A DNA stretch of 64,000 nt from Rhodospirillales bacterium (GTDB taxonomy: Bacteria; Pseudomonadota; Alphaproteobacteria; Rhodospirillales; Casp-alpha2): NCBI GenBank assembly GCA_965216765.1, contig OZ244199.1, positions 2,310,357 to 2,374,356 of the forward strand. Direction: 5' to 3'. Shown here one piece after another: positions 1,234-16,201 of this stretch. The notes beneath the pieces were generated by a model. That model was not told the origin of the DNA and did no database searches. It saw only the letters and a program-made list of their open reading frames with translations. The position numbers and the translations under genes are program-made. Numbering within the stretch: position 1 is the stretch's first letter; each line of letters begins with the position of its first letter.

Positions 1234-1259
1234 CTGCTTCTCCTTCTGATTAAACGACG

Positions 1260-1778
1260 TTAAGCCCACCCGGACCCGGTGTATTGACGACTCAGGGTAC
1301 TCGTTTCGTACGGCGCGTTGCCGCCACTGCTGAAACTGTTACTGATGCCGCGGGCGATCATCTGCCCACCTGTATTCGCGACGGTGGACATGATGTTATT
1401 CCGCGTCGCTAAGAGGTTCTCTCGCTCCCGCGCGCGCTGGTTTGCGCGCAAGCTCTCAACACCGAGATCGAATAGCCGGCGGTCCTCGGCAATCGCTTTT
1501 TCCGTACGCGACGCAATACCGTCGACAAGCGCATTCGCCGAACCGCCTGTCGATGAAACACCGCGCGCGCCGAATGCGGCCCGCGCCCTGGCCTGCTGCG
1601 CCTTCGATTGCTCGCGTTGACGGCTCTCTTGAACCTGACGCTCCTGTTCGCGTATCGCGATCTGCTGTTCCTGCTGCCGTCGCTGTTGGCGCGCTTGCGC
1701 CTTCGCCTGCGCCGCACTCTGAATAGACGATACTGCCGACGAAATGATGAGAGCCGTCGCTGTGCCTGGATCAGCCAT
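1260..1778 (-). CDS. Internal virion (ejection) protein, T7 gp14-like
   Basis: AGGAG RBS before ATG 1778; small-residue N-terminus, Q/R-rich coiled coil, then ARARAAFGARGVSSTGGS; follows tail tube B. Confidence 0.6.
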   Translation of the reverse strand: MADPGTATALIISSAVSSIQSAAQAKAQARQQRRQQEQQIAIREQERQVQESRQREQSKAQQARARAAFGARGVSSTGGSANALVDGIASRTEKAIAEDRRLFDLGVESLRANQRARERENLLATRNNIMSTVANTGGQMIARGISNSFSSGGNAPYETSTLSRQYTGSGWA

Positions 1779-1816
1779 GAAATTTCTCCTGTGTGTAAGT
1801 AGTCGTTTCGATTGAA

Positions 1817-3727
1817 TCAGCCATTGGACGCGACCTTGGTCGCAACCGACAGCAACGTGAAGGGTAGGGGCACGTCCTGGCGGATCGACCACAGCGCATC
1901 TGGACCAACGGTGCGCCAACCAAGCGCACGCACGGTCTTGTCACCCGTGAAAGCCGGCGCTGGCTGATCAAGGAGTGTTGGGCCCAATGACTGAAACGGC
2001 ACGTCGGCATAACCGCGTCCAACGTTAAGCCGGAGTGCCGCCGTCTCCTGTAGGCGAAACGTGACGCTAATTGGTCGGACCTTGGTTCCCATCCCACTGT
2101 TGGCGTCTGAGAGAACCAGCGGCATCGGCTCGACTCGGTGCTCGAAGCCGAGCCCTGCCTCAATCCTGGATGCACCGTAAGACAGGCTGATCTGTCCGTT
2201 GTCGACCACTGCGTCAACGCGCGGTGCACCATCGGCTAGGACGGTCAGTGTCTCGCCCTCCAGATGATCAAACCCCGGCCAGGTATCGGTCGGGGTTTCA
2301 TCTTCGTCGTCGAGGCCACTGTCGGTGGAGAGTGTTGAATCGAACTTCTCGACGAAGGCATTGTCGCCTCGCATCACCAAGACATAGACTTCTGTACCGA
2401 CTGCAGCCACGGACAAGAACTGACCCGCCGTTTCCTGCAATGACCAAGCGTTTACATTCTCGGCTCGATAGACTGTCAGCGTGCCGATACTTCCATTCGA
2501 CATCACCACGTGCAGATGCCGACTGGCGTTTTCGTAGTCCTGATCAATCGGCGAGACGATAAGATGTTGCGCCGTGGTCGCGAGGTCGGTCGCCTGATAC
2601 GCTTGTTCGACATCAGCATAAAGGAACTCGCGCATGCCGCTGCCATCTCGCGGCACAAAGATGGTCGCGCCGTCGATATCGCGCGGTGGCACAGCGCGAT
2701 CGACCGGCGAGCCGATACGCGTCTGGCGGCGGAGTTGAAGGTTCTCCGGCGTCAGCGGCTCACCCGTCACCATCCATTCCGCGCCCGACGTGAACACCTG
2801 CAGATGGCGTCCAGAAAACACCGCGCGGATCGCGTTGACCTGATCGGACAGGATGGCGAACTCGATGGACTCGTCGTCCAGTCCTTCGCCGAGATCGAAG
2901 TTGAACAGATCCGCCGACTTCGAAATCCAAAGCCGGTTCGGCAGATCTCGCGATCCACCGATCACCAATCTGTCCTGGTGAAAACAGATAGAAACCGGCC
3001 AACCGCGTACAGCTGAGAACGATTGCTCTTCCCAGTCATTGGTCGCGGAAGTGGAGGCGAGGGTTTCTTTGACCGTCGCCGTCGCAGATGTCGCCGAGCC
3101 AACGGCGGTAATCTCAACTTCCTTGTCCTGAAGACGCATCCGCGTACCGACATGGTCCGCGGCGAAGACATCGTCGGATGCCGTAAGCGTCACCGAACCG
3201 CTGGTCGCGCTTGCTGTCAGCGTGTGACCGTCGTCTGTGAATTTATGATGCGGTTGCTGCAGACGGTTCTTGCTATCGGATTGATCATCCAGGAACGACC
3301 ATGTCGCTATGGACCAGGATGTGTGTGAGGACCTTGAAATCTTGCGGGGCTCGACTTCGGGGTGCACGACAAACAACGTATCGGCACTCTGTACCCAGTT
3401 GATTTGACCCAGCTGATCCTCGGTCCACGGCGCTGCAAAATCTGCGATGGAAACGCCGTTGCGATAGACGTCGACATGTTCGTCGGAGAAGACCAGGAGA
3501 TATACCTGCTCCGTGTTGAATTCGAACGCAACCAGTCGGCCCGGACCGCGCGCGGAATCGATGTAACGCAGTCCCGGGCGGCGCACGACACCACCGGTCG
3601 CCTGAATGAGAACGTTGCGGAGTTTTGCTGCCCCGTTCCCGTAACTGCGAAGATCACCGCGTCCGAGCAAACGAGGCGAGATCTCGCCGCTGGTGAAGTT
3701 AGATTTGTCGATGTTGAGATGAACCAT
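1817..3727 (-). CDS. Tail tubular protein B / nozzle (T7 gp12, P22 gp10-like)
   Basis: N-terminus KSNFTSGEISPRLLGRGDL...NV...GGVVRRPG; GWP...FHQDRLVIGG beta-propeller motifs; 636 aa. Confidence 0.85.
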   Translation of the reverse strand: MVHLNIDKSNFTSGEISPRLLGRGDLRSYGNGAAKLRNVLIQATGGVVRRPGLRYIDSARGPGRLVAFEFNTEQVYLLVFSDEHVDVYRNGVSIADFAAPWTEDQLGQINWVQSADTLFVVHPEVEPRKISRSSHTSWSIATWSFLDDQSDSKNRLQQPHHKFTDDGHTLTASATSGSVTLTASDDVFAADHVGTRMRLQDKEVEITAVGSATSATATVKETLASTSATNDWEEQSFSAVRGWPVSICFHQDRLVIGGSRDLPNRLWISKSADLFNFDLGEGLDDESIEFAILSDQVNAIRAVFSGRHLQVFTSGAEWMVTGEPLTPENLQLRRQTRIGSPVDRAVPPRDIDGATIFVPRDGSGMREFLYADVEQAYQATDLATTAQHLIVSPIDQDYENASRHLHVVMSNGSIGTLTVYRAENVNAWSLQETAGQFLSVAAVGTEVYVLVMRGDNAFVEKFDSTLSTDSGLDDEDETPTDTWPGFDHLEGETLTVLADGAPRVDAVVDNGQISLSYGASRIEAGLGFEHRVEPMPLVLSDANSGMGTKVRPISVTFRLQETAALRLNVGRGYADVPFQSLGPTLLDQPAPAFTGDKTVRALGWRTVGPDALWSIRQDVPLPFTLLSVATKVASNG

Positions 3728-4296
3728 CAGGACCTCACATCGACCAGGGTGAAGTTCTCGAAATACACCGGGGATTCCTGCTGCGCGTCAATGGACTTGG
3801 CGCGCAGCAGTTCATCCTCGGCAAGTTTTAACAAGACCTCGGAACGGGAGGTGGAGTCCGTCAATGGGATGCAGAACTCTGCCGCCAGCCTTGCAATCAG
3901 GGATTGATCGAAAAATGCCGGAAAGGTTCTTTCATCGGGGCGGAAGATGTAAGTCAAAGTCACGTCTGCAGCGTCGGTATGTAGCCGACGCTCCGCGATA
4001 CGGTATGCAATTCCTCGGCCGCGCGCGCCGGTGCCCGCCGACAACACGCGGAGAAAGTCGCTCGGCAGTTGATAAGCGTAGCCATAATCGGCAACCGGCT
4101 CGGCGGCGAGTCGCGCCAACGCGACCTGACCGGTCGCGAAGCTCCATGGATGGCCCGAGATCAGAGCATCGCGTGTCGGGCTATAAAGGCTCGCGGCGAC
4201 CTCGGCTTCCGCCGTGCCGTCCTCAAACGATGCGATGCTATCCGCGCCAAGTTTCATCAGCGCTCGCGAACAGAGCGCGATATTGGACAGTGCCAT
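3727..4296 (-). CDS. Tail tubular protein A / head-tail adaptor (T7 gp11-like)
   Basis: AAGGAG RBS before ATG 4296; IALCSRALMKLGA...HPWSFAT...YAYQLPSDFLRV...ALIARLAAE; coupled to tube B. Confidence 0.85.
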   Translation of the reverse strand: MALSNIALCSRALMKLGADSIASFEDGTAEAEVAASLYSPTRDALISGHPWSFATGQVALARLAAEPVADYGYAYQLPSDFLRVLSAGTGARGRGIAYRIAERRLHTDAADVTLTYIFRPDERTFPAFFDQSLIARLAAEFCIPLTDSTSRSEVLLKLAEDELLRAKSIDAQQESPVYFENFTLVDVRS

Positions 4297-4321
4297 GTGT
4301 CGTCTCCTTGAATTTGCACAT

Positions 4322-4343
4322 AAAAAATGCGGCCCGAGGCCGC
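4322..4343 (-). terminator. Intrinsic terminator just upstream of tail tube A
   Basis: Minus strand GCGGCC-TCG-GGCCGC then ATTTTTT; ends 25 nt before the ATG. Confidence 0.55.
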
Positions 4344-4363
4344 TGGTGTTTACAGAACAAACC

Positions 4364-4439
4364 TTGTCATCCCCGCGCTGACGGGAATCCAATATTGGGC
4401 GGTCGCAGATGTGGATCCCCGCCTTCACGAGGATGACAA
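4364..4439. repeat. Alphaproteobacterial REP/RPE-like palindromic element
   Basis: TTGTCATCCCCGCG..CGGGAATCCA-spacer-TGGATCCCCG..CACGAGGATGACAA; matches the GTCATCCCCGCG...GCGGGGATGAC family. Confidence 0.75.
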
Positions 4440-4443
4440 AACT

Positions 4444-5994
4444 TCAGAATTCAAACCCAAGATTTTCGCCGTAGCGCTTAGCAAGGCGCTCGGGTCCGTG
4501 TTCCAAAAGCATCATGCGGAAGGCATCGGTCGTTTTGGTGCCGATATCGCCGTCGATTTTCAACGGTTCCGCTTCGGGTATCTTTTTCGCTTTTGCCGCC
4601 TCAACGCCAAGCCCGTTCAGACTTTCCTGCAATGCCTCCGCCGCCGCTTTCGGTTTCTCATCCCCGAGCAACGGTTGCACGGCATCTTCAATGGTCTTTT
4701 TCAAGCCCGACGCCGAGCGGCCCGAAGACCGCTCGCTTTCGGCGAAGCGTTTGAAGCCACCGAGTGCGGACGCCTCTTCGGTTTTACCAGCGCCTTTCTC
4801 GGCCAGCGATTTCATCAACGCGTCGCGTGTTTTCAGCCCGGCGATACCGTCTACCTTGAGGGACGCACCGCCAAGGTTGAGGCCGGTCTGCAAACCTTTT
4901 ACCGTCTCGCCCGCGCCCTGCTCGGCTGCGGCCTTCTCGAGCGTCCCGGCGAGCCGCTTGATGCCTTCCGCCAGCGTGCCGCCGCTGGCCGCCTTGGCAG
5001 GCGTCGGTATATCGGGAACCGAACGTTGCGGTTTCGGCTGGATCATGCGACCGGTCGCGTCCGTCTTGGCCAACACGTCGCCATAGGTCAGCGAATAGAA
5101 ATCGCGGCGTTTTTGGTCGAGTGTTTCCCGCAGCGGGTCACTCGCCTGCAGGTCGTGATACCAGTTGCCAAGATCGGCCACTTCCGCGTCCGTCAGCTGA
5201 TCAGCGGACTTATACAACAGCTCCGCCCTGGCGTTCTCCTTGCCGTTCGGCATCAGACCGGCCATTAGCTGAGAAGCCTCTGCAAATTCGCCACGGGAAC
5301 CTATCTCACGGTTCTCCGCTTTTGGATCTTGCGTCGCCCCCATACCGAACTCACCAGACGCCGATGCGCTACTATCGGCTCCAGGCATGAGGACATTCGG
5401 CCGGACATCACTGCCTTCGTATAGAGGTCCGCTGCTACCTTTTACTTCATCGTCGTCAATATATCGGTCGCTATTTATGTAATCACGGATCGCACGGCGA
5501 CGTTCGGCACCTATTTTCGTCCTCTCTTCAATCTTGTCGATTTCGATGATGTTGCCCCTACGTAGGGCATCATATCCGGCACCATATGGAGACCATTTTC
5601 CCCCCATTTCAAGCAGCTCTTCTTTTGTGAACGACTGGTCTATCCTGATATCCGTCTCAGCCGCATCAAGCGCACTTTGTGCCAAGCTGACGCAGTCCGA
5701 CGCAAACAGCTTATATTCGCCCGGATCGGCTCTTACCTTTTCTAAGAACCCAGCCGCCTTTTCGGCTTGAACCTTACTCAGGGGAAATTCCCGTGAAGTC
5801 ACGCCGTCATCACTTCTGCGATCCGTATCGTCACGTATTTCAGCTGGGTTCCCCCGCAAAGCTTCAATTGGGTTATCACTGCTGGAATACTTGCCTAAAA
5901 CCGGCACTTTGATTCCAGGCCCTTCCACACCGACAAAAAAGTGGCCCGTAGGCTTGCTCTTGTCGGCATACAAAGTCAGTTTATAGTCACTCAT
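4444..5994 (-). CDS. Chimeric protein: N-terminal permuted papain-like (His...Cys) domain plus C-terminal region with two PG_binding_1-like motifs; candidate effector
   Basis: AAGGAG RBS before ATG 5994; TGHFFVGV...YKLFASDCVSLAQSAL; C-terminal LQTGLN..LKVDGIAGLKTRDAL and LQESLN..LKIDGDIGTKTTDAF; no signal peptide; GC break inside the gene. Confidence 0.65.
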   Translation of the reverse strand: MSDYKLTLYADKSKPTGHFFVGVEGPGIKVPVLGKYSSSDNPIEALRGNPAEIRDDTDRRSDDGVTSREFPLSKVQAEKAAGFLEKVRADPGEYKLFASDCVSLAQSALDAAETDIRIDQSFTKEELLEMGGKWSPYGAGYDALRRGNIIEIDKIEERTKIGAERRRAIRDYINSDRYIDDDEVKGSSGPLYEGSDVRPNVLMPGADSSASASGEFGMGATQDPKAENREIGSRGEFAEASQLMAGLMPNGKENARAELLYKSADQLTDAEVADLGNWYHDLQASDPLRETLDQKRRDFYSLTYGDVLAKTDATGRMIQPKPQRSVPDIPTPAKAASGGTLAEGIKRLAGTLEKAAAEQGAGETVKGLQTGLNLGGASLKVDGIAGLKTRDALMKSLAEKGAGKTEEASALGGFKRFAESERSSGRSASGLKKTIEDAVQPLLGDEKPKAAAEALQESLNGLGVEAAKAKKIPEAEPLKIDGDIGTKTTDAFRMMLLEHGPERLAKRYGENLGFEF

Positions 5995-6219
5995 CTCTCG
6001 CTCCTTTTCAGAATTTTGACTGAAGTGGCCGTTGCAATAGCTTCCAGCCACAAACGGCGCATACGTGTATCCAGCACACGAACCCCGCAGATTTTTGATC
6101 TCGCCATACGGGAAAAATCCGCCACGCTAAATTCGTAAAATTTGTAAGATGTCGTCGTCAGCGGAAAATTTTCTCGCTGCGCCTTCCATAAATAAGCATC
6201 TATATCGAGGAGAAAAAAT

Positions 6220-6762
6220 ATGTCCGAAATTCATTTGAACACGCGTCAACGCGAGGATATTGCAAGCGTCTTCACAACACTTGCCGGGATTTGGTTTTTA
6301 CTAGCCCCACTGGAACACATTATTAAGGAGTCAAATATTGCACTCGATAAAGATGGCCTTCTGCAAAATTTCATCGACTTTATGTGGTCTTATGGCGCCC
6401 TCTGGCCATTAATTTTTGGTGGCCTGTACTACCTAGGTTTCTTCATAAAAAGAGGAAATTCTAAAGATATGGGCGTCGGCCTACCGGTTGGCGTTACCTC
6501 GTTGTTTATCTCTTTTGTTTCTATACTTGCGGGATATGCATCTTTGCTAATCGCTGGCACTGGTTGGATTGGCTGTATGTTCTTCATATCAGCGGTGTCC
6601 GTTGGTTCTTTTCTCGCTCTGCGAAGAATGTTTAGAAGGCATGTGATTTTTTCGGGGACACTTAGTGAGTTTCTATCCGGTGCAACGCCATTTTTTGCGG
6701 TGCAGTTTTGGATCATTTTTACTATTTCTCTCGAACCAAAGTTTGCCCGTGCATTTTACTAA
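6220..6762 (+). CDS. AT-rich multi-pass membrane protein, divergent from the effector; candidate immunity protein
   Basis: GAGGAG RBS; 4-5 hydrophobic segments; about 42% GC in a spot count of 6301-6360; the only plus-strand gene inside the virion cluster. Confidence 0.65.
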   Translation: MSEIHLNTRQREDIASVFTTLAGIWFLLAPLEHIIKESNIALDKDGLLQNFIDFMWSYGALWPLIFGGLYYLGFFIKRGNSKDMGVGLPVGVTSLFISFVSILAGYASLLIAGTGWIGCMFFISAVSVGSFLALRRMFRRHVIFSGTLSEFLSGATPFFAVQFWIIFTISLEPKFARAFY

Positions 6763-6810
6763 GAATGCTTCGGGCGTAGGTACGAGGCCTGCACGCCATC
6801 GGGGGTAGGA

Positions 6811-6990
6811 TCAGATTCCGAACCCAAGGTCTTCCGCGAATCGCTTGGGCAAGGGCTCGGGACCATGATCCCCCAGCGCGAACAGAAGGTATCGGTCATC
6901 TTGACGCCCAAACCGCTGTCGATTTCCAACAGCTCCGACGTTTTCTTTGCCATCGCCGTTTCTGTGCCGAGCCCGTTCGGCCTTGCCTGA
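6811..6990 (-). pseudogene. Frameshifted remnant of a paralogue of the C-terminal constant region of 4444-5994
   Basis: Reads QARPNGLGTETAMAKKTSELLEIDSGLGVKMTDTF / LFALGDHGPEPLPKRFAEDLGFGI* versus QESLNGLGVEAAKAKKIPEAEPLKIDGDIGTKTTDAF / MLLEHGPERLAKRYGENLGFEF*. 43 of 60 nt identical, ungapped, from the stop codons. Confidence 0.85.
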
Positions 6991-6995
6991 AAGGC

Positions 6996-7391
6996 TTAAG
7001 CCGGACCCTTCCAGACTTTGACACCTTTCTCGACCGAGCGGCCGACGACGTAACCGCCGACACCAAGTTTCAGGAGATCCCACATGTCCGGCGGGATCTC
7101 CGCCGACGGCGTGCCGAAAAGCGGCACGACGACGTAGTTATTGGCGATGATGACGCCGAACAGACACATCAAAAGCGGCCGCCAGTTACGTTGCAGCCAG
7201 CTTTCGCCCTGCGCTTCGGCGACGATGATGTTCGCCGCCGCCTCAATTTCCTTCATTTGGCCGTCCAGCACCTTCTGTTGTAGGACGGATTTGATTTGCG
7301 CCGCCTGATCCTTGTTCTCGACAGCTTGATCAACGACATCGAACAACCCCTTCAAGAGCGGTCCTGCAACCGCGGTAACGAGCCCCATCAT
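6996..7391 (-). CDS. 3-TM holin (GTA_holin_3TM-like)
   Basis: IVAEAQGESWLQRNWRPLLM...MWDLLKLGVGGYVVGRSVEK; MM dual start. Confidence 0.88.
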   Translation of the reverse strand: MMGLVTAVAGPLLKGLFDVVDQAVENKDQAAQIKSVLQQKVLDGQMKEIEAAANIIVAEAQGESWLQRNWRPLLMCLFGVIIANNYVVVPLFGTPSAEIPPDMWDLLKLGVGGYVVGRSVEKGVKVWKGPA

Positions 7392-7738
7392 GGCAGCCCC
7401 CTCTTTGCGCGCCTCGAGCCATCGGCCTCTCGCAGCATGAGCCCGAGGATGCGGTCGTTCTGCTGGGCGATGGCACGGGTTCGCTCGTCAAGACCAATCA
7501 ACTTGCCAACCAGCACGCGTTGTTGCTCATCGACACTGGCAAGCCGGTCGGATTGTTTGCGACGCATAGTCACGTTGTCAGCGACCGTCGCCTCCAAGGT
7601 ACCGATTCGGCCATCCGTCTCGGCGCGCCAGGTTGCATCGGCATATAGGAGCGCGCTGGTCTGAACGATCAACGCCCCGATGATGCCCAGCGGCACACGC
7701 TTATCGAGATGCCAAGCTTTATCGTTTCCCGTCATCAT
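7388..7738 (-). CDS. Membrane-anchored coiled-coil phage protein (lysis-cassette accessory)
   Basis: WHLDKRVPLGIIGALIVQT TM segment plus coiled coil; ATGA overlaps with both neighbours. Confidence 0.6.
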   Translation of the reverse strand: MMTGNDKAWHLDKRVPLGIIGALIVQTSALLYADATWRAETDGRIGTLEATVADNVTMRRKQSDRLASVDEQQRVLVGKLIGLDERTRAIAQQNDRILGLMLREADGSRRAKRGLP

Positions 7739-7935
7739 CCGCCACCTCCGTTTCTCGGATTGGCCGTCTGGGCCGCGCGCACATCGTCCAAGAATGTCTG
7801 CGCGGCGTCGGTCCTGAGAACGGGCGCTGTCGCCTCGACCAGGTCGGCGACAACGATCATGAGATCGTACTCGCGTCGGCGGATCGGCTCCCCCTTACTG
7901 AGCGCATCGTACTGCTTGCGTTTCCAACTTTTCAT
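7735..7935 (-). CDS. Small protein after the tail fibre (possible fibre chaperone)
   Basis: 66 aa, coupled between fibre and lysis genes; function inferred from position. Confidence 0.45.
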   Translation of the reverse strand: MKSWKRKQYDALSKGEPIRRREYDLMIVVADLVEATAPVLRTDAAQTFLDDVRAAQTANPRNGGGG

Positions 7936-7943
7936 GTGTCACC

Positions 7944-9566
7944 TCAATAAAATGCGACAAGGCCGACGCAGTCATGCAACCGGACCTCTTTGTTGTTGAC
8001 GGTGGTGATCTGGTAGACGAGCGATGCGCCACTCTGTGCCGAGACATCGGTTTCCAGGCGGAACAGTTCTTCACCATCGCTACCGATGTTGCCGACCTTG
8101 GTCCACGTGCCGATAGCCCAGGTAGAGCCGCCGTCAATGGAAGCTTTGCCGACGATGTCGGTGCCGTAGGTCACGCTGACCTGCGGATCGAGCACGAAGT
8201 AGCCGATGACGTCGGTCGGATCTGCAACTGCCAGCGATGCCGCAGAGGGCGACAACGTCATGTCTGTCGCCGGTCCATCGACAAGAAGCTCAAGCTCAAC
8301 CACCCCCCAACGCTGGTTTGTATTCGTTTTCGACATAGCCCAGCGCCAGTATCGGTAGCTCGTGGACGGTGAGATATCGAAGGTCTGATCGGATTGACTG
8401 TTCGTCGTCGTCAGGACAGTTGTCCAGGCACTGTCATCGTTGGAACCTTCAAGGGTCAACGTACCATTGGTTCCCGCGTCGTTAGCAGGTCGATGTCGCA
8501 TTTTCGTCGGCTGCACGTCGTTGCCGTCGCCAAGATCGACTTTGATCCAATGCGAGCCGCCATTGACCGTTGCGGTCTTTGTGTCGTCATCGCCGTCGGC
8601 AACAACTTCAATCCCTGCGCCGGGTGGCGTACTGTGCCCTGTCGATATGGATGAAGCAGTCCATGTTTGTTCGACGTCCGCCGTGTCGCACGCGTTGATC
8701 AAGCCCAAGTTATGATAGAAGTCGCCGTCGGCGTCGTACCGCGCATCCGTCGATACTGCTAGCGTGTCGACTTCGAAGTCATCCGACAGTTCGAACTTGC
8801 CGATGCCTCCCGTGATGGATACGGCGTCATTCTGTGCCAGCGAATACGCCAGCACCGACGCCGCCATATCCCGGGCGACATGATCGGCGCCGCCCGCGTT
8901 GCCCGCTGACCAAACGCCGCCGGTAAAGAAGAGCACCTGCCCCTCCACCGGCGTTAGACCGGCTATCGCCGTTAAGGCGGCATCGGCCGCCTGCGCACCG
9001 AGGGTCGTCCGCGCTGCATTGGCATCGGCATCATCGAGCAATGTTTCCGCGAAAGCCGTCATGGTGATGTACGGTTCCGCATTCGGTAGCGCCGTCGTAA
9101 GGTTGCCGTTGTCGTCAAAGACCAGCATGCGTCCGGCTCGGTCGGCGGTAGCCGGCAACGTCAATGTTGAGCCGGTATCCGATGAAGACAGCCGAACCGA
9201 GCGTTCGATGTCATCGGCGAGTTGCTGCAGCGCGGCGATCTGGAAATCCAACTCGTCGTTGATGACTTTGGCCCGAAATTCGCCCGACGCTTGAAAGTCC
9301 GACACGCGCCGAATGGTCAATTCGCGTACCAGTGCAACGGCCGCGCCGTCTTCGGGTGCGGCAACGAAGGTTACGGTGCCGCCGGCACTTTCACCGGCGC
9401 CGGATACCGAATATTGCGTCGTCAGCGTCTGTAGCGTGCCGTCGACATAAACGGCGATGTCTTCGTTTTGAAAGATCGGGAACGGATAGGTGAAGGCGAC
9501 CGTCGCGCCATCACCCGCATAATGAATGCGGGGCGCGATGTCGCCGATCTGGATGTGATCGGCCAT
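7944..9566 (-). CDS. Tail fibre with T7 gp17-type N-terminal anchor and an F5/8-type-C (discoidin) carbohydrate-binding domain
   Basis: RIHYAGDGATVAFTYPFPIFQNEDIAVYVDG; AFAETLLDDADANAARTTLG spacer; HWIKVDLG...TLEGSNDDSAWTTV...SYRYWRW. Confidence 0.85.
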   Translation of the reverse strand: MADHIQIGDIAPRIHYAGDGATVAFTYPFPIFQNEDIAVYVDGTLQTLTTQYSVSGAGESAGGTVTFVAAPEDGAAVALVRELTIRRVSDFQASGEFRAKVINDELDFQIAALQQLADDIERSVRLSSSDTGSTLTLPATADRAGRMLVFDDNGNLTTALPNAEPYITMTAFAETLLDDADANAARTTLGAQAADAALTAIAGLTPVEGQVLFFTGGVWSAGNAGGADHVARDMAASVLAYSLAQNDAVSITGGIGKFELSDDFEVDTLAVSTDARYDADGDFYHNLGLINACDTADVEQTWTASSISTGHSTPPGAGIEVVADGDDDTKTATVNGGSHWIKVDLGDGNDVQPTKMRHRPANDAGTNGTLTLEGSNDDSAWTTVLTTTNSQSDQTFDISPSTSYRYWRWAMSKTNTNQRWGVVELELLVDGPATDMTLSPSAASLAVADPTDVIGYFVLDPQVSVTYGTDIVGKASIDGGSTWAIGTWTKVGNIGSDGEELFRLETDVSAQSGASLVYQITTVNNKEVRLHDCVGLVAFY

Positions 9567-9593
9567 AGTGATCTCCTGTGATTGAAGGAACGT

Positions 9594-10040
9594 CTATTCA
9601 ACGTCGTTGTAAAAACGATGCCGACCGATAATGACAGCGGCGGCGCGGCCCTTGGCCCACGGCGGTGAGACATTGAGCGTGTGATAGTGGGTCGCGCCCT
9701 TGGTCGGATCCTTCAAGGTGCCGGCGAGTGCGCGACGTGCGACGCGCAGGCACGTCTTGAAGGTTGAGTTCGAGTTTTCGACGGCTTCGATCTTGGCACG
9801 GTTCGGATCGTTCTCGTTCCAGCATGAAAACTGCCACGGCTTGGTGCAGACGCTTTCGACATCGTCGCCCCACCAGTAGCCGCGCAGCCGACGGGCCCGC
9901 CGCACACGGTTGAGCACAATCGCTGCCACGGCTTCCTTCCCCCGCACGGGTTCGCCCCGCGCCTCGCCGTAAATCGTGCGGGCGAGCACGTCTATTTCCC
10001 GCGCACGCTTTTCATGCACGAAATCGTCTTGATTGGACAT
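9594..10040 (-). CDS. Cell wall hydrolase, SleB/Hydrolase_2 family (endolysin or virion lysin)
   Basis: LARTIYGEARGE...VLNR...KPWQFSCWN...DPTKGATHYH. Confidence 0.92.
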   Translation of the reverse strand: MSNQDDFVHEKRAREIDVLARTIYGEARGEPVRGKEAVAAIVLNRVRRARRLRGYWWGDDVESVCTKPWQFSCWNENDPNRAKIEAVENSNSTFKTCLRVARRALAGTLKDPTKGATHYHTLNVSPPWAKGRAAAVIIGRHRFYNDVE

Positions 10041-10076
10041 CGATCCTCTCCCTTTTTCAGGTTAGTTGGTTGAAAT

Positions 10077-10108
10077 AAAAAAGCCCGCCGGGCCGAAGCC
10101 GGGCGAGC
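10077..10108 (-). terminator. Intrinsic terminator with cUUCGg loop upstream of the hydrolase gene
   Basis: Minus strand GCTCGCCCGGC-TTCG-GCCCGGCGGGC then TTTTTT. Confidence 0.7.
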
Positions 10109-10178
10109 GGATTGATCACAAGGATTTCTGGCGAGATTAGGTTAAGTCATCATAGATCGATGAGTTAGTTTGCGGCCG

Positions 10179-10560
10179 TTAGGAGCCGCCGAAGTTTTTC
10201 TTGGGCAAGAATACGATGACACCGTCCGCCGTTCCGGGTGGATCGAAGGTCAACGAAATTTTGATACCCGTTGCAGACAAAGCCTCGTTCACGGCAGCAA
10301 TCGAGTTCGAAATCAGCCGTTTTTGATGCGGCGGCGGCGCGAGCGCATAGTAAACGGGCGAGATACTCCATCGGGACGCATTTTTGCCTGAGCCGTCATG
10401 TTCATGCGAGAGCAAAACCTTACGAACCAATGTCCATTCGCGATAAGCGCCATCTCTTCTTACGTTTCGATGGCGTGTGCATCCGACGTGTAGAGTAGCG
10501 CTAAAAGCACGCCAATCACCCATGATGTGAGATACGAAACGTTCAGACGTGCCCGTCGAT
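10179..10560 (-). pseudogene. Probable degraded secreted-protein gene (signal peptide and mature part in different frames)
   Basis: One frame gives RRARLNVSYLTSWVIGVLLALLYTSDAHA-IET*. The adjacent frame gives ...SRWSISPVYYALAPPPHQKRLISNSIAAVNEALSATGIKI, resembling DUF2927-type lipoproteins. GAGAGG RBS near 10565. Confidence 0.4.
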
Positions 10561-10588
10561 CAACCCTCTCGGATGACCGAGGCCAGAA

Positions 10589-11074
10589 TCACTTTGTTTT
10601 CTCTTTCACATAAACGAAGCGCATCAGCGCCAGAGTCAAATCGTCAATATTCTTCGCCAGAATAGGCATATCACCATTCCCAGATGCCGAAATTCGCAAA
10701 GGGTCGATACCTTTCTCGACAAGGTACACTCGTACTGCGGCAGCTCGATTGCCTCCCAACTCTAACCTTTCGATACTTGAGGGGGCTTCTCGCATATCCG
10801 CGAAGCCGACGAGTTCTATCCTAAGGCTCTGATTGGCGCGAAGATACGCGGCCTGCCGATCAAGAACCTTACGCGCTGAGGACGTTAGTTTCACTGACTT
10901 GTTGTCAAAAAAAACTTTCTCTTTCAACGCCTCGTGTTGATCAGGATGAGGGATGCACGGCAAATAAAAGTCGAGGCCGTTGGGCGCCACTTTTGGTGGA
11001 CAGATCGTCTCGCCCGCCAGCGCCGAAGAACAGCTAAACATCGCTAAGAATATTCCAGTCGTAATAGCTTTCAT
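10589..11074 (-). CDS. Secreted OmpA/Pal-like peptidoglycan-binding protein
   Basis: Signal peptide MKAITTGIFLAMFSCSSALA; VFFDNKSVKL...LDRQAAYL...IELVGFAD...LGGNRAAAVRVYLVEKGI. Confidence 0.8.
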   Translation of the reverse strand: MKAITTGIFLAMFSCSSALAGETICPPKVAPNGLDFYLPCIPHPDQHEALKEKVFFDNKSVKLTSSARKVLDRQAAYLRANQSLRIELVGFADMREAPSSIERLELGGNRAAAVRVYLVEKGIDPLRISASGNGDMPILAKNIDDLTLALMRFVYVKEKTK

Positions 11075-11132
11075 TATCTCAACCTCACTCCGCCGGCATC
11101 CTTCTGGTTCATTTCCGAATGAACCATGACGG

Positions 11133-11615
11133 TTATATTCTTATTGGAGGGCGAATCGGCTTCCCTGTTTTTGGATTTTTTCCATCAAGAATAATGTTTC
11201 CATCCTCATCCACGCCAGGGCGGGAGTAGATGCCTCCTTCATCTTTCGGCTTTGGAAGGAACGGTTTATTTAAGATCGGCATGTTCTTGTCGATATTTGG
11301 CGGTTCAAAAACAGGCATATTGCTGCCCGACGGTTGCGGCTTCTCGTCATTGTGACCAGTACTCGCTTCCAGCCCTCGCTTTATAGTCCTTTCTGTTTCT
11401 CCGCCCGGCTTCATAACACCGTCAACCTGAAGCATGTTGGCTCGTTGATACGACCAAATCCCATCAAACATTTGTTCATCAGGATACTGCGTCATGCCAT
11501 AGCGCGGCGTTTTATAATAGCCGCGTTTTTTCAGCGCGCCCTTGGTTTGCAACGCGTCCCGCTCGTCTATATGGGACGCGCTATCCACGCGCCCGAAAAG
11601 CTTGAATGGTGTCAT
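11133..11615 (-). CDS. N-terminal PG-binding-like domain plus AT-rich Pro-rich variable C-terminus; candidate effector
   Basis: AGGAG RBS before ATG 11615; TKGALKKRGYY..YPDEQMFDGIWSYQRANMLQVDGVMKPGGET; about 62% GC at 11521-11580 versus about 42% at 11161-11220. Confidence 0.6.
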   Translation of the reverse strand: MTPFKLFGRVDSASHIDERDALQTKGALKKRGYYKTPRYGMTQYPDEQMFDGIWSYQRANMLQVDGVMKPGGETERTIKRGLEASTGHNDEKPQPSGSNMPVFEPPNIDKNMPILNKPFLPKPKDEGGIYSRPGVDEDGNIILDGKNPKTGKPIRPPIRI

Positions 11616-11642
11616 CTTCATCTCCTGTACTCATCCAATGAA

Positions 11643-11672
11643 AGGACCGCGCCGGTTTTTCGACGCGGTCCT
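11643..11672 (-). terminator. Hairpin downstream of the capsid/decoration genes (possible terminator)
   Basis: Perfect 9-bp AGGACCGCG/CGCGGTCCT stem; weak U-tract on the minus strand. Confidence 0.45.
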
Positions 11673-11698
11673 CCCCATGGGTGCGAAGCCGAGACCGT

Positions 11699-11968
11699 TT
11701 AGTCGGTGTCGGAGCCGCCCACCTGCGTCAGGTCGTTCACGTCGACGACGCCGGAAGCATTGGCGCTGACGTAAAAGATCCCGCCCGCAGGCGTTCCGTC
11801 GGTGTCGACATTGGCGAAGATCATGTCGCCGACGCGCAGCATGTCGCTGGCGTCGTTGAAGTAATCCTCGGTATCAACGGTCGCAGCCGTATCAACGGTG
11901 GTGTAGTGCCAGAGCGTGAAGCCGTTCGCATAGGCCAGCACGCTCAGGTCTTTCGAGACGTAAGACAT
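11699..11968 (-). CDS. Probable capsid decoration/cement protein
   Basis: 89 aa beta-rich protein (LSVLAYANGFTLWHYTT...LRVGDMIFANVD) directly after the capsid gene; strong AAGGAG RBS. Confidence 0.6.
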   Translation of the reverse strand: MSYVSKDLSVLAYANGFTLWHYTTVDTAATVDTEDYFNDASDMLRVGDMIFANVDTDGTPAGGIFYVSANASGVVDVNDLTQVGGSDTD

Positions 11969-11992
11969 CGTTCTCTCCTTATCTGAACCGGA

Positions 11993-12811
11993 TCACGATT
12001 CCAGGCAGCGCATGGAGACGACACCCGCCGTATCCACCAGCGCCGAGCCCTGGCTCATCATGTTGTTGATGAAGTGCGCGGCGCGGTCGCCGTGCCAGGT
12101 GATGTCGGTCTTGACATCGGAACCGACGGCATGGCCGACGGCGATCTTGTGGTACCAGTAGCAGTAACGGACGCTCGACGTCAGTGTGAGGCCGGAGTGC
12201 GGCATCCACAGCGTGCCGAGCCAACGCTTGGCCTGGGTGCCCTTCCACGGCAGGTCCTCGTCGCCGACGTAGTCCGCGTGTGCGAACTCGTCGATGTCGA
12301 GAAGATCCGACCACTGCTTCCAGCCGACCACGGCGTAACGTTCACCGTCGTCCGGCACGTCGGCGCCGCCCAGCATCTCGAACGCCGTCAGCACCTTGGC
12401 CTTGGTCAGGCCGTCGGAACCGGTGCCGGCATAGTTGGTCGAGGTGTCGAGCTGCTCGATGACGAGCTCGTCGGTCTTGCGGCCGAGTGCATAGGCGCCG
12501 GCACGCGTGATGACGCCGCGCTCGTCGTGCGCGGTCTTCAGTTCGTCCAAGCTATCGACCCAGTCACCGGCGTAGTAGTCATAGAGGGTGACCTCCACCG
12601 GCTCGTGATCGACGTTCATCACCGGCACCTTGCCGTGCCGCGCCTTGGTCGTCGCCGTGCCCTTGCCGATCTTCTGGAAGGTGGTCGACGACCCCTGGAT
12701 ACCGTTCTTGGTGCGCACGGTATTGCGCAGTTTGGAGCCCATCCGCTGATAGGCCATGTGCACATCCGTCTGGAAATGTTTGACGAATGAGTCTTCAACG
12801 CTCGTGGACAT
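11993..12811 (-). CDS. Major capsid protein (compact HK97 fold, podovirus type)
   Basis: FVKHFQTDVHMAYQRMGSKLRNTV...DYYAGDWVDSLDELK...AGAYALGRKTDELVI; follows the scaffold; TAAGGAG RBS; strongly G/C-ending codons. Confidence 0.9.
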   Translation of the reverse strand: MSTSVEDSFVKHFQTDVHMAYQRMGSKLRNTVRTKNGIQGSSTTFQKIGKGTATTKARHGKVPVMNVDHEPVEVTLYDYYAGDWVDSLDELKTAHDERGVITRAGAYALGRKTDELVIEQLDTSTNYAGTGSDGLTKAKVLTAFEMLGGADVPDDGERYAVVGWKQWSDLLDIDEFAHADYVGDEDLPWKGTQAKRWLGTLWMPHSGLTLTSSVRYCYWYHKIAVGHAVGSDVKTDITWHGDRAAHFINNMMSQGSALVDTAGVVSMRCLES

Positions 12812-13044
12812 CGTCCGCTCCTTATCTGTTTGCGTTGTCGGGTGGAGTGAAAACCGGCCGCGCGGAGGTTCCGGGCCGGGCCGCCATGGCCCGCCCGCTC
12901 CCGCCGCCGGGACGCGCCCTCAGGCCCGCCGGTGCACGGTCATCGGACAGCACCTATGCGGGTTCTCTTCGGGCGAAAATTTCAGATGTAGGCCGCTTGG
13001 GGATGGCCAGGGAACTTTCTGTGGCCAAGCGGCCGTCTACAGGC

Positions 13045-13093
13045 ACGGAATCTCTCTGCACCTCTAGATTGCAGCCTCCGCGGGGATGACAAG
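13045..13093. repeat. Degenerate second copy (right half) of the REP/RPE-like palindrome
   Basis: TAGATTGCAGCCTCCGCGGGGATGACAA resembles TGGATCCCCGCCTTCACGAGGATGACAA ending at 4439. Confidence 0.55.
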
Positions 13094-13114
13094 AATTTTG
13101 AGGGCAGGGCAGTG

Positions 13115-13160
13115 GAAAAAAGCGGGGGCGCCGTGAAAGCCACAAACACGGCGCCCCCGC
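13115..13160 (-). terminator. Strong intrinsic terminator between scaffold and capsid genes
   Basis: Perfect 14-bp stem GCGGGGGCGCCGTG / CACGGCGCCCCCGC, 11-nt loop, TTTTTT on the minus strand. Confidence 0.8.
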
Positions 13161-13244
13161 CGGGACGGGGGAGCTGCGAAAACCCTATACGCGCTCAACC
13201 CCGCCCGAGGGGCGTTGCCGCCCCGTCTCTCGGCCGAGTGCGCC

Positions 13245-13982
13245 TTAGCCGGGATAGAGTCGCTCGAACCCCTGGCGGACCTTGGCGACAAGGGCCGGGT
13301 CCTGTTCGCGCCAGTACTTCGGGTCCTGCATCAGGGTGCGAAGCGCCTTTTCGTCCATGCCGCTTTCCCGCTGGCCGGTGCGGGCGACGCCCGGCTCGTC
13401 CGCGGCCATCATGCGATGTAGCGCCATGACTCCTTCATAGGTGCCGCTGAGCGCATCCATCACTTCGTCGGGCAGATGCGCCTTGCCCCAATCACCAAGC
13501 TGTTTGGCGACGCGTTGCCAGCGTTCGGCGCCGCCGAAGGTTTCTTCTAGACGGCCCTGTACAAGCGCCGCTTCGCGTTTGCGCTCGGCAGCTTCCAGTT
13601 CCGGCACTACGTATTTGCGCGCCAGGTCATAGACGAGCTGCGCCTGATCGTTGGTGAAGCGTGCATCGTGCAAGATAGCATTGACCTCAGGGTCCGCATG
13701 GCGGTCGCCGCAGTCAATGCAGTATTCCTCTGGGCTCGGCGGATAGCCGACGTCACCCTGATGGTAACGGTTCTCCAACGTCTGATAGGACCGCCAGAGA
13801 GAGCCGGCACGGACCTCACCTTTTTCGTCGTCCCAGAATTTATCCGGCAGGCCGGCAGGCCGCGGCTTCTTCGGCGGCAAGTCATCCGCGACAACCTCCG
13901 GCGCGGCAGACGCGCCGCTGTCAGCCATAGAAAAGTCTTCGTCTTTGTCGTCGGTGTAGTCGTTTTCAAGATAGTCGGACAT
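13245..13982 (-). CDS. Capsid scaffolding/assembly protein
   Basis: Acidic N-terminus, RPAGLPDKFWD...SYQTLE, C-terminal LMQDPKYWREQDPALVAKV; lies between portal and capsid. Confidence 0.8.
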   Translation of the reverse strand: MSDYLENDYTDDKDEDFSMADSGASAAPEVVADDLPPKKPRPAGLPDKFWDDEKGEVRAGSLWRSYQTLENRYHQGDVGYPPSPEEYCIDCGDRHADPEVNAILHDARFTNDQAQLVYDLARKYVVPELEAAERKREAALVQGRLEETFGGAERWQRVAKQLGDWGKAHLPDEVMDALSGTYEGVMALHRMMAADEPGVARTGQRESGMDEKALRTLMQDPKYWREQDPALVAKVRQGFERLYPG

Positions 13983-13993
13983 GGTGGTCTCCT

Positions 13994-14266
13994 TTATGCG
14001 TTGTCGTCGGCCAGGACTGCGAAAGGCGGCACCGGGCCGCTGCGTCCTCGCTCGATAAGTGCCAAAAGGTGCTGCACCAGATAGCGCTGCCCCTCGAGAT
14101 GGCGAAGCTGCGCGTCCGGTACGGCGGGGCCGAGCGCGCGCCCGGTGGTGATCGTGCGCAAGTAGTCGAGCAACCGCTCACCGTCTGCGCCCGAGAAACA
14201 TCTGGCCGCGCTGACTGCCAAAGCCTCGGGATCGTTATCGGCGACCGGGGTGTCAGTTCTGGACAT
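13994..14266 (-). CDS. Bbp19-like small phage protein
   Basis: FSGADGERLLDYLR...LRHLEGQRYLV motif; directly after the portal. Confidence 0.7.
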   Translation of the reverse strand: MSRTDTPVADNDPEALAVSAARCFSGADGERLLDYLRTITTGRALGPAVPDAQLRHLEGQRYLVQHLLALIERGRSGPVPPFAVLADDNA

Positions 14267-15914
14267 CGGGGCCTCCTTGCGGCGGTGCGGTCTGGCCGCC
14301 CACCATGTCGCCGATGGCGCCCATCACGTCTTCCATCGTCACTTCAGGTCCGGCTCCTCCGTCGCCGCCGCCGAGCAGACCCGCCAGCGGACCGCCTACG
14401 TCAGGCGCCTCTGCCATCTCGGCAATCTCTTCGGGGGATTTCATGATGCCCTCGGGCACACCGTAGGCGCGTGCCAGATGGCGCGCGGTCTTGACAGGAT
14501 CAATGAGTCCGAAAGCCTGGGGCCCAAGCGCATTCAAACCCGCAATCCATTCCTGGATCATCTTTGCCTCGCGCTCGACACGGAGACGCGCCAACGGCGA
14601 GGTGTAGACAAGTTCGACCGTGCGATTGTCGATCTCAAACGCCGGAATCTCGCCCCGGCGTTGCAGGATTGAGATCGCCCGGAACGCAAGTGGTGTCAGC
14701 AGTTCTGATTGCAGCCGCCCGTAGATCGCCCCCATCAAGCGCGCCATCTCGACGGAACGCTGCACGACTTCGGTCGCCGTCATGTCCGCTTTGTTCGGCT
14801 GCCCCATCAGGTCGATCAACAGCGCATGACGAATGCGGTCCTGCATGCGTTCAAGCACCAAGTTCGACACGTCCATGTCATTTGCCGGCTTCAGCGGCGT
14901 GAGACCGGCGGAGCCAACCGCCTTTGGAATGATCGTACCGGGCTCCAACTTAATGGTTGCCGGATTAAGCACACCGTCGTCGTCTGCCTGCCAGATCCCG
15001 GTGACGGCTATAGAGGCATTTTTAAGAACAAGCTCTACCACCTTGTTGGCTGTCTTAATGTCGGGCAGCGCCTTCATCACAGGCGAACGCCCGTAGATTT
15101 CTCCCGGTGCCTTGACCCAGCGGAAGGTAATGAACGGCGACGAGCGGAATGTGCCAGTCTCGATGATCTCGCCGCCGCCCTGCTCGCCGTCGCCTTCGCG
15201 CACAGCGAAGAAGTCGAAGCCGCGTTTGCCGGGCATAACCGCTTCGATGACTGCGATACGAATTTCTGTCGTCACGGTGCTGTCGTCGTTTACCTTGAGA
15301 CCTTCGGGAAGGGATGCTTCCGGATAGCGTTCCAGATACTGTGTGGGCGTCAGCGACAGACGCCGATACGTCGTCTCCAGACGGCCCGAAAGCGATTCCT
15401 CGACCACAAGTTCGCTGAGCGGTACGGCGGTAAAGCGAAACCCCGCGCGCTCACCGATGGGTGCTTCCTCGAACATCAACGAGGCTGTGCCCGCGGTCAC
15501 GAGGTCCAGATAGCACTGGTGCATTTCAACGGCGAAGTTTGCGCGATCGAAGTGTCCCTGCAGGACGTTCGCCGTTTCTTCCAGAACCTCAGCCATATGT
15601 CCGCGTTGTTCTTCGGGCACTTCCGGACCCGGTTTGAAGTCGAACCAGCGCGACCACGGCGGCGTCAATTCCGAAAGCAGACTTGCCGACAATTGGTCGA
15701 CAGCATCGACGGCCGTTGCGTCGTAAAGGCGCACGCCTTTTTTTTCACCGGGTGACGGATCGCCGAGAACGCCTTCGCGCTGTGGCAGTGCGTACTCGTA
15801 GCACTCGCGCCAGTGGTTCTCCCACTTGCCCCGCCGGTCCTTGGCGCGGCGGTAACGACGCAACAGGGCATCAGCGTCGAGACCCGTTGCGGCGTCTTGT
15901 TGATGGTCGGACAT
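14253..15914 (-). CDS. Portal / head-to-tail connector (T7 gp8 type)
   Basis: WENHWRECYEYALP...LYDATAVDAVDQLSASL...GEIYGRSPVMKALPDIKTAN...MTATEVVQR...GRLQSELLTP; GGGAG RBS before ATG 15914. Confidence 0.93.
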   Translation of the reverse strand: MSDHQQDAATGLDADALLRRYRRAKDRRGKWENHWRECYEYALPQREGVLGDPSPGEKKGVRLYDATAVDAVDQLSASLLSELTPPWSRWFDFKPGPEVPEEQRGHMAEVLEETANVLQGHFDRANFAVEMHQCYLDLVTAGTASLMFEEAPIGERAGFRFTAVPLSELVVEESLSGRLETTYRRLSLTPTQYLERYPEASLPEGLKVNDDSTVTTEIRIAVIEAVMPGKRGFDFFAVREGDGEQGGGEIIETGTFRSSPFITFRWVKAPGEIYGRSPVMKALPDIKTANKVVELVLKNASIAVTGIWQADDDGVLNPATIKLEPGTIIPKAVGSAGLTPLKPANDMDVSNLVLERMQDRIRHALLIDLMGQPNKADMTATEVVQRSVEMARLMGAIYGRLQSELLTPLAFRAISILQRRGEIPAFEIDNRTVELVYTSPLARLRVEREAKMIQEWIAGLNALGPQAFGLIDPVKTARHLARAYGVPEGIMKSPEEIAEMAEAPDVGGPLAGLLGGGDGGAGPEVTMEDVMGAIGDMVGGQTAPPQGGPDVQN

Positions 15915-15915
15915 A

Positions 15916-16137
15916 TTAGTCTCCCAACTTCTCTTTAAGGTCATCGCCGTCAGCGCTTCCGCTGCCGCCGCCAAGCGGATCGATGACGCCTCGCTCGGAC
16001 GTCGCGATGGTCCCGGCGCGGCCGCGGCGACGGCGCTCGATTGCTTCCAATCTGCGTTTGCGATCCTCGGCGCCGGTATCGACCGGTGGCGGGGTTGGAG
16101 GTGCAGGCGGGGGTGACGATGAGAATAAACCTCCCAT
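15916..16137 (-). CDS. Small pre-portal virion protein
   Basis: MGGLFSSSPPPAPP...RRRRGRAGTIATSERG pattern typical of podoviral pre-portal genes; AAGGAG RBS. Confidence 0.7.
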   Translation of the reverse strand: MGGLFSSSPPPAPPTPPPVDTGAEDRKRRLEAIERRRRGRAGTIATSERGVIDPLGGGSGSADGDDLKEKLGD

Positions 16138-16201
16138 GATGGAATCTCCTTGCGGTTTAAGTGAACGGGAACCGGTCCGCGACACGCGAAGCCGGAAATA
16201 G

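Follow-up and report, generated by a model that had tools for sequence, protein, structure and literature searches.

A proposed mobile two-gene cassette in a phage-derived cluster: an effector-like protein with an exchangeable tip and its OmpA-like partner

What is a small protein with a peptidoglycan-binding look and no signal peptide doing between the capsid and endolysin genes of a phage-derived cluster, and what is meant by the secreted OmpA/Pal-like protein and the wreck of a third gene that follow it? The question is raised by part of a stretch of DNA, 64,000 nucleotides (nt) long, from a marine alphaproteobacterium. The whole stretch is called the window, and coordinates are positions within it. 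An earlier reading of the region (the original prediction) saw in it the constant domain, variable tip, periplasmic partner and orphan remnant of a toxin-immunity locus, a layout that comparison with homologues upholds. I propose that the region holds a mobile two-gene cassette (11615-11133 plus 11074-10589), a member of a polymorphic effector/partner family. This is the best explanation of the whole, and with the antagonism that it implies I would put its probability at roughly 0.55.

A constant head, exchangeable tips and a gene for each tip

The cassette region consists of these parts:

11615 or 11621 to 11133, minus strand: effector-like gene, 160 or 162 amino acids (aa)
11364..11615, minus strand: constant head of the effector-like protein (residues 1-84), without a signal peptide; three-helix domain of the PG_binding_1 type
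11136..11363, minus strand: variable tip, "type A", residues 85-160, Pro/Lys-rich
11133..11135, minus strand: stop codon of the effector-like gene
10589..11074, minus strand: OmpA/Pal-like partner gene, 161 aa (PF00691)
10191..10558, minus strand: DUF2927 pseudogene, from tblastn with the DUF2927 protein of the related locus L010
10523-10179, minus strand: open reading frame (ORF) of 114 codons

Effector-like gene, OmpA/Pal-like gene, dead gene and, behind them, a terminator all lie on the minus strand in order of transcription, each where the original prediction had placed it.

The start at 11615 (MTPFKLF) agrees with the ribosome-binding site (RBS) and with homologues, AGGAG standing 6 nt before the ATG. 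The ORF 11621/11615-11133 encodes no hydrophobic N-terminus, in keeping with a signal-less protein, and it contains the motif YPDEQMFDGIWSYQRANMLQVDGVMKPGGET that had been picked out earlier. The resemblance of its N-domain to a peptidoglycan-binding domain is weak in this protein: PG_binding_1 (PF01471) matches residues 27-70 with E=0.0015 and 19.1 bits, under the Pfam cut-off of 23 bits. Relatives that share this head reach 24-66 bits. AlphaFold2 (AF2) models a confident three-helix unit at residues ~18-83 (helices 18-30, 47-59 and 75-83), with a confidence score (pLDDT) of 85-90 over residues 20-60. The best Foldseek match to the model, the N-terminal domain of SleB (6tci), is weak and not significant (E=1.1), and a PDB sequence search with the family profile gave no match. 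Across 19 relatives the head has the consensus xFKLxGRVD...DTLQTK.AL..LGYY..P.YG.T.YPDE.MFDGI..YQ....L.VDGVMKPGGETE, and the motif MFDGI..YQ...DGVMKPGGETE is invariant.

What follows that motif is another matter. A word-indexed search gave 19 close homologues that have the head in common and at least five unrelated C-termini:

type A: rich in Pro and Lys, the one found in the window
type B: Cys-rich CxxC...CxxC mini-domain
type C: charged stretch with the end RPFRGGGGG...YDPYEWLDM
type D: Cys-rich peptide
type E: helical region of 150 aa

A profile of the head, run on 301 sampled genomes of the order, found the family in 121 of them, spread over 52 of 111 genera; a single genome may have as many as 11 copies, and the open frames are 113-796 aa long. 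The window's own genome has this single copy. A second scan, with one genome per species, added 42 further loci, all in Rhodospirillales-type alphaproteobacteria (Magnetovibrio, Terasakiella, Curvivirga, Ferrovibrio and Thalassospiraceae among them). The tips at these loci include Phage_Mu_F, Tlde1/YkuD, Ntox44, a Gly-zipper with a PBECR1 nuclease, Glyco_hydro_108 (GH108) with PG_binding_3, Pesticin (E=5e-31), Phage_lysozyme and several unknown domains. Several tip classes of the relatives are thus recognised toxin or cell-wall-lytic domains. The tabulation of homologues that the original prediction had called for therefore found the N-domain kept and the C-termini divided among many unrelated classes, rather than one conserved C-terminus. 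The protein is built of a constant PG_binding_1-type head of about 80 aa and an exchangeable C-terminal tip.

Then there is the junction between the two. L060 has effector genes in tandem whose heads are 88% identical as protein up to residue ~79, their DNA being 70-100% identical over nucleotides 1-240. Right after GGETE(K/R)SM identity drops to background, and the tails (type C and type A) and partners are unrelated. Recombination thus occurs at a sharp junction just behind the GGETE motif. The head tree, when labelled by tip type, requires several changes of tip, but it is too short to decide the matter. Comparison of the window with its closest relative, L008, tells of separate histories as well: the rate of synonymous change (dS) is 1.25 for the head, 0.29 for the tail and 0.46 for the OmpA-like gene, so the history that tail and partner have in common is younger than that of the head. 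Every part of the cassette is under purifying selection against L008, with ratios of nonsynonymous to synonymous change (dN/dS) of 0.14-0.35. The values for the effector gene (0.21) and the OmpA-like gene (0.25) argue that neither is a chance ORF.

It is the gene downstream that gives the tips their interest. Type A is followed by a gene of the OmpA family in 11 of 11 loci (the window, L005, L006, L007, L008 and L056-L061), which represent about seven distinct lineages. In L005 the type-A/OmpA pair lies between scaffold and capsid genes, and in L057-59 it is upstream of a portal gene; since the pair is found in these other slots of the cluster, its two genes move together. Behind type B there is a convergent gene of 136-149 aa in eight of eight loci, some without phage genes nearby; type C is followed by DUF2927, and type D by a membrane protein of the Rce1/CAAX-Abi family (PF02517, E=7e-17). 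Cluster-16 tips are followed by cluster-17 proteins (4/4, three of them in the L024 array of four head genes) and GH108 tips by a convergent protein with a signal-peptide-like start (3/3). Cassettes may stand in series: in L060 the endolysin is preceded by [B remnant + convergent gene][C + DUF2927][A + OmpA][DUF2927 3' remnant], and in L056 by [B + convergent gene][A + OmpA][HipA/HTH] (helix-turn-helix). Each tip class examined thus has its own downstream gene, as the predicted periplasmic-partner layout would have it. The gene order across loci argues that every tip type travels with its neighbour, and that the type-A tip, Pro-rich and apparently non-enzymatic, travels with a secreted OmpA/Pal-like protein. 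A mirror-tree correlation of tail or head identities with those of OmpA gave no discrimination.

Two of these arrangements deserve a word of their own. L011 and L063 (5989-7122 in L011) have a Cys-rich tip (CPNGQY...CMDNWVC) followed by the Rce1/CAAX (Abi) gene, and have the look of a bacteriocin with its immunity protein. The Rce1/CAAX (Abi) family is known for bacteriocin self-immunity. The L024 array (3704-11832, from a Rhodospirillales metagenome-assembled genome) consists of four head-family genes, of which three share an unknown C-terminal domain of ~300 aa, each followed by a cognate gene of ~210-230 aa. No phage genes were detected near that array.

The type-A tip is Pro/Lys-rich, as predicted, and an alignment of eight tails gives it the motif P..PP....NMP....IY..P.VD..GN...G.N....K, with 16 invariant positions. 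Its dN/dS against L008 is 0.35. A profile of the tail, searched against 1.84 billion representative proteins, gave 20 matches, 14 of them small. Of the small ones 13 bear the tail: 12 of the 13 fetched, and P0017, which was already a head homologue. P0042 and the remaining weak matches are unrelated beta-rich repeat proteins. In all but one of these 13 the tail follows a head that resembles PG_binding_1, whole or in fragment; the exception is P0035, a metagenome protein of 266 aa with a different, non-PG_binding_1 N-terminus. Because the tail-bearing proteins nearly all have such a head, the type-A tip is a conserved module specific to this family, some 55-75 residues long, with no recognisable catalytic domain. 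The region before the tail of P0035 contains the motif DPNQPRDEHGRW, which recurs in phage head-associated and polyvalent proteins.

The partner is better behaved in database searches. Its OmpA domain (aa 55-135, window 10670-10912) scores 54.2 bits with PF00691 (E=1.9e-14), above the gathering threshold of 27.2, and is preceded by a signal peptide at about aa 1-20 and a conserved ICPP...LPC extension. The N-terminus, MKAITTGIFLAMFSCSSALA|GE, is signal-peptide-like, so both halves of the earlier description, a signal peptide and an OmpA/Pal-like body, stand. The cleavage site reads like an A-L-A|G site of signal peptidase I and not a canonical lipobox. The closest PDB matches are periplasmic domains of Pal (1oap, E=9e-8), and in alignment to Pal the peptidoglycan-binding pair of Asp (FAD) and Arg (NRA) is kept. 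The partner nonetheless is not Pal. It lacks the lipobox and falls far under the NCBIfam equivalog cut-offs (NF008067, 41.1 bits against 261; TIGR02802, 39.7 bits against 125), it has a Cys-containing N-terminal extension of its own, and it is encoded on a mobile cassette behind a type-A tip gene.

A slot between the capsid and endolysin genes

The surroundings of the cassette are these:

13982-13245, minus strand: T7-type scaffold gene
12811-11993, minus strand: Phage_capsid_2 capsid gene
11699..11968, minus strand: 89-aa gene, left flank, 3' of the capsid gene (phrog_18004, unknown function, E=1e-22)
11622..11698, minus strand: spacer between 89-aa gene and cassette, the left edge of the insertion slot, holding the RBS of the effector gene
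10073..10108, minus strand: intrinsic terminator that closes the slot on the right; the endolysin RBS follows ~30 nt later
9594..10040, minus strand: SleB-type endolysin (Hydrolase_2), right flank (PF07486, E=1.5e-21; phrog_938, endolysin)
9566-7944, minus strand: T7-type tail fibre with an F5/8-C domain

The rest of the window from 1 to 16 kb encodes a portal, a nozzle, a gp14-like protein and a holin with three transmembrane segments of the type found in gene-transfer agents (GTA), after which comes ubiA. The 89-aa gene adjoins the capsid gene in all related clusters. It had been called a capsid decoration gene, a name for which I find no warrant: it matches phrog_18004 alone, and Pfam and PDB searches gave no match.

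The original prediction rested part of its case on base composition, with an N-domain at about 62% GC and host-like, joined to a tail at about 42%. Measurement does not bear this out. The first 85 codons are 51.0% GC and so not host-like, the C-tail is 46.6% and the OmpA-like gene 49.4%. The complete insert (10041-11698) is 50.8% GC, the flanking genes 60-63%, so the entire cassette is compositionally foreign and not the tail alone. The same is true of every cassette type in related clusters (49-55% against flanks of 61-65%). GC content as a sign of a swap within the gene is therefore ruled out.

The slot also shows turnover. In the window's genus its contents, from the 89-aa gene to the endolysin, vary: two genomes have nothing there (~300 bp), "Thalassospiraceae bacterium LMO-JJ14" has [C + DUF2927], another has [B + partner][D + Abi], and the remaining ones differ again. 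Homology of the window to an empty site reaches ~11638 (L065 1275-1315 with window 11678-11638, 78%). One empty site retains the beginning of a type-B gene, its leader and ~10 codons, and both retain a hairpin behind the 89-aa gene. In the window the terminator (10108-10073) has the stem GCUCGCCCGGC/GCCCGGCGGGC, followed by UUUUUUAUUU, with a folding energy of -20.4 kcal/mol and z of -2.6, and an equivalent hairpin with its T-run is found in the empty sites L065 and L066. The predicted terminator is thus real, but since both empty sites keep it, it belongs to the conserved slot and not to the cassette, which spans roughly 11637-10110. This comparison of sites places the cassette in a hot spot of gain and loss, bounded by phage-head genes on one side and the endolysin on the other, within a particle cluster derived from a podovirus.

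The dead gene is a relic of the same turnover. What had been described as a degraded gene for a secreted protein is a DUF2927 pseudogene in two frames, with an in-frame stop and a lost 3' end. Its signal-peptide part (10558-10442) corresponds to residues 3-41 of the intact DUF2927 protein of L010 (62% identity), lacks a start codon and contains an in-frame TAA. A frameshift near 10442 puts the body (10442-10191, residues 42-129, 55% identity) in a second frame, and the last ~125 C-terminal codons are gone. The DUF2927 proteins of L001, L010 and L060 are annotated PF11150, intact DUF2927 genes lie 3' of type-C tips in L001, L012 and L060, and DUF2927 remnants recur at other loci. The pseudogene, judged by its relatives, is what is left of the partner from a displaced cassette of another type, type C. 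A literature search found no paper that mentions DUF2927.

Other genes share the slot. In L010 a gene for a small membrane protein of the Pmp3 family (5865-6035, on the opposite strand) adjoins the DUF2927 and OmpA genes there. HipA/HTH pairs of the HipBA type are inserted variously in related clusters (L001 4938-6549, L003 13736-15292, L056 2711-4273), their positions being between scaffold and capsid genes, after the holin or in the cassette slot.

One might suppose that there is no cassette at all, and that the head is merely the cell-wall-binding module of the downstream endolysin, detached from it by insertions, with a tail that means nothing. The canonical architecture of SleB is PG_binding_1 plus Hydrolase_2, the order in the window is head, insert, Hydrolase_2, and the head's best structural match, feeble as it is, is to SleB itself. 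The empty sites speak otherwise, since they hold the endolysin and no head gene. The head also occurs in hundreds of places with no Hydrolase_2, and a meaningless tail should not have 16 invariant positions and a dN/dS well under one. Empty sites and tail conservation together rule this idea out; it is largely refuted, and I give it next to no credence.

What the pair may do

It is one thing to say that the two genes move together and another to say why. I infer from their company and their compartments that the type-A tip is toxic, that the OmpA-like protein binds it, and that the effector leaves the cell by the particle cluster. In the proposed sequence of events, the signal-less effector would be made together with the late particle and lysis genes and would exit the cell either inside particles or through lysis by holin and endolysin. 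Upon entering the periplasm of a neighbouring cell, its head would dock on peptidoglycan, and the tip would then disturb a target in the envelope. By binding the tip, the periplasmic OmpA-like protein would shield the producing cell and its kin. A signal peptide is present on the partner and absent from the effector, and the same division of compartments is shown by periplasm-acting effectors and their immunity proteins.

An alternative view is that the pair antagonises no one. It would be an accessory pair (a "moron") working on the producer's own envelope, for example by making the bond between peptidoglycan and outer membrane more stable, tuning lysis or excluding superinfecting particles, with tips that fit envelope partners and are no toxins. 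Such a role would sit well with peptidoglycan-binding modules in both proteins, with a low-GC accessory slot that adjoins the endolysin and in relatives holds other envelope proteins (DUF2927, Pmp3, OmpA), and with a tip devoid of a toxin domain. But the head protein has no export signal, and it should therefore never meet its periplasmic partner in an intact producer. Moreover, the same head elsewhere bears bona fide toxin domains (Ntox44, PBECR1, Tlde1, Pesticin), and there are tandem arrays with cognate neighbours away from phage genes, such as the four copies of L024. I consider a purely domestic function rather unlikely.

The effector reading must itself answer to the question of delivery, and here the particle cluster is the obvious candidate vehicle, through packaging or through release by holin and endolysin. 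The MuF polymorphic toxins of prophages provide a precedent, since they are predicted to travel in phage heads (PMC3482391, PMC5576092). In L043, L046 and L054 a head-family gene lies directly 3' of the portal gene, and some relatives, for example L033, have a MuF domain.

The cluster itself (~1-16200) consists of particle, lysis and packaging genes only. Its capsid gene (11993-12811) is found in 179 of the 301 genomes of the order, nearly always in single copy, and the likeness of its copies follows taxonomy, with 86-92% identity inside the genus, 76-82% inside the family and 67-80% inside the order. The pattern seems to fit a vertically inherited, domesticated (GTA-like) element of podovirus type better than it does ordinary prophages.

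Could the head protein be a part of the particle, an ejection or pilot protein? The head would then dock on the peptidoglycan of a recipient, the tip would suit the recipient's envelope, and the partner would capture the tip to make the carrier immune. There are relatives in which the head gene directly follows portal/Bbp19 or scaffold genes, some have the Phage_Mu_F head-morphogenesis domain, and many of the tips hydrolyse peptidoglycan, as virion-associated lysins do. The trouble is that some clusters of the same genus have nothing in the slot and yet look otherwise intact, from which it follows that the particle can dispense with the protein. The capsid is absent from 38 of the 121 head-positive genomes, and many copies of the head lie among housekeeping genes. 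A structural role seems to me distinctly improbable.

Several observations count against the effector reading, and they should be faced together. Some concern the tip. It has no match in Pfam, PHROG, NCBIfam, PADLOC or PDB, and no toxin domain or catalytic motif, just as the original prediction had noted; toxin activity, offered there as conjecture, stays conjecture now that the domain searches of the tip have come up empty. AF2 gives the type-A tail low confidence and leaves it largely disordered. Toxin-domain tips (Ntox44, Tlde1, Pesticin, PBECR1, GH108) are seen in relatives and not in the window's type-A tip, and those relatives with lysozyme-type tips could be ordinary modular lysins. Others concern exchange and pairing: the head tree is short and poorly resolved and gives no statistical proof of tip swapping, and in L010, the single exception, an OmpA gene stands behind DUF2927 with no type-A gene directly upstream.

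Still others concern the vehicle. Among the 301 genomes, 83 have both capsid and head, 38 the head only, 96 the capsid only and 84 neither, an association that is weak (odds ratio 1.9, p=0.009, uncorrected for phylogeny). Complete genomes of the same genus that lack the capsid still have head-family genes among housekeeping genes, with neighbours of ~210-230 aa. A search of the complete genome to which the window belongs found neither VipB/TssC, the sheath in type VI secretion systems (T6SS), nor VirB4, and VipB, present in 30 of the 301 genomes, is found in just three of the 121 that have the head (118 lack it).

Two simple ideas of delivery fall with these counts. Strict dependence on the particle capsid is ruled out by the 38 capsid-free genomes and the housekeeping loci. 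Delivery by T6SS or a type IV system is ruled out for the window's own genome, and delivery by T6SS also for the family as a whole.

The proposal of a mobile effector/partner cassette might be pushed much further. PG_binding_1-headed proteins would then be the cargo or released weapons of vertically inherited, podovirus-derived particles, delivered by capsid independently of T6SS, and the type-A tip would attack the anchoring of peptidoglycan to the outer membrane, of the Tol-Pal or OmpA type, with the Pal-like partner as a decoy that neutralises it. So specific a scheme is a long shot.

Kinship with known systems

The closest kinds are the polymorphic toxin-immunity systems, above all the MuF toxins borne by phages and the PG_binding_1-marked effectors of T6SS. 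Both exchangeable C-termini and a tip-specific downstream gene, by which polymorphic toxins are recognised, are found here. Like those systems (Zhang et al. 2012, PMC3482391; Jamet and Nassif 2015, PMC4436062), the family has a constant N-terminal module with recombining tips (Ntox44, Tlde1, Pesticin and a BECR-type nuclease included), a cognate gene directly downstream, copies in tandem, and orphan modules that are displaced or degraded. It differs in that the constant module is a small PG_binding_1-type domain without a recognised secretion signal, and in that a short peptide of 30-75 aa makes up many of the tips. Zhang et al. list PGB1 just as an adhesion module within toxin polypeptides and not as a head that defines a family.

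The MuF toxins (Jamet et al. 2017, PMC5576092) are likewise encoded in a phage-type head module with a small cognate gene downstream, and some members of the present family lie directly 3' of the portal gene or have Phage_Mu_F behind the PG_binding_1 head. The protein of the window, however, has no MuF domain and follows the capsid and 89-aa genes, not the portal, and the family is also found far from any phage genes, whereas MuF toxins are reported exclusively in temperate phages and prophages (PMC5576092). PG_binding_1 is known as a conserved N-terminal domain of diverse T6SS toxins at vgrG loci of gammaproteobacteria, where a role in effector discrimination has been proposed (PMC10673891). 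The N-terminal fusion of PG_binding_1 to diverse toxins is common to both. Here, though, the hosts are alphaproteobacteria, the window's own genome has no T6SS sheath gene, and the loci are not vgrG loci. With no MuF domain in the protein and no T6SS in the genome, the window's system lacks the defining feature of each of these kinds.

If the proposal is correct, it describes a large, previously unnamed class of polymorphic effectors, present in about 40% of the sampled genomes of the order at up to 11 copies per genome. The module that defines the class would be a small peptidoglycan-binding domain, and export would be independent of T6SS or any other recognised system. Part of the family lies inside a conserved phage-derived cluster, which makes it a testable idea that domesticated particles or lysis modules serve as weapons besides serving as gene-transfer agents. 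With their partners (OmpA-like, DUF2927, CAAX/Abi), the non-enzymatic short tips of types A to D would be a source of new envelope-targeting peptides, and DUF2927 would gain its first functional context.

There remain some neighbours of the cassette. Relatives encode a protein of 400-500 aa between the scaffold and capsid genes (L001 234-1598, L012 1185-2540, L010 609-1817, L057 1777-3288). Its N-terminus resembles PG_binding_1 more distantly, and its C-terminus is a long, acidic coiled coil. In the window that interval is a very GC-rich spacer alone (12812-13244, 433 bp, up to 73% GC). The window also encodes, at 4444-6051, a protein of 535 aa in which Pfam recognises nothing but PG_binding_3, at the very C-terminal end (aa 495-528), and a divergent gene of 180 aa lies at 6220-6762.

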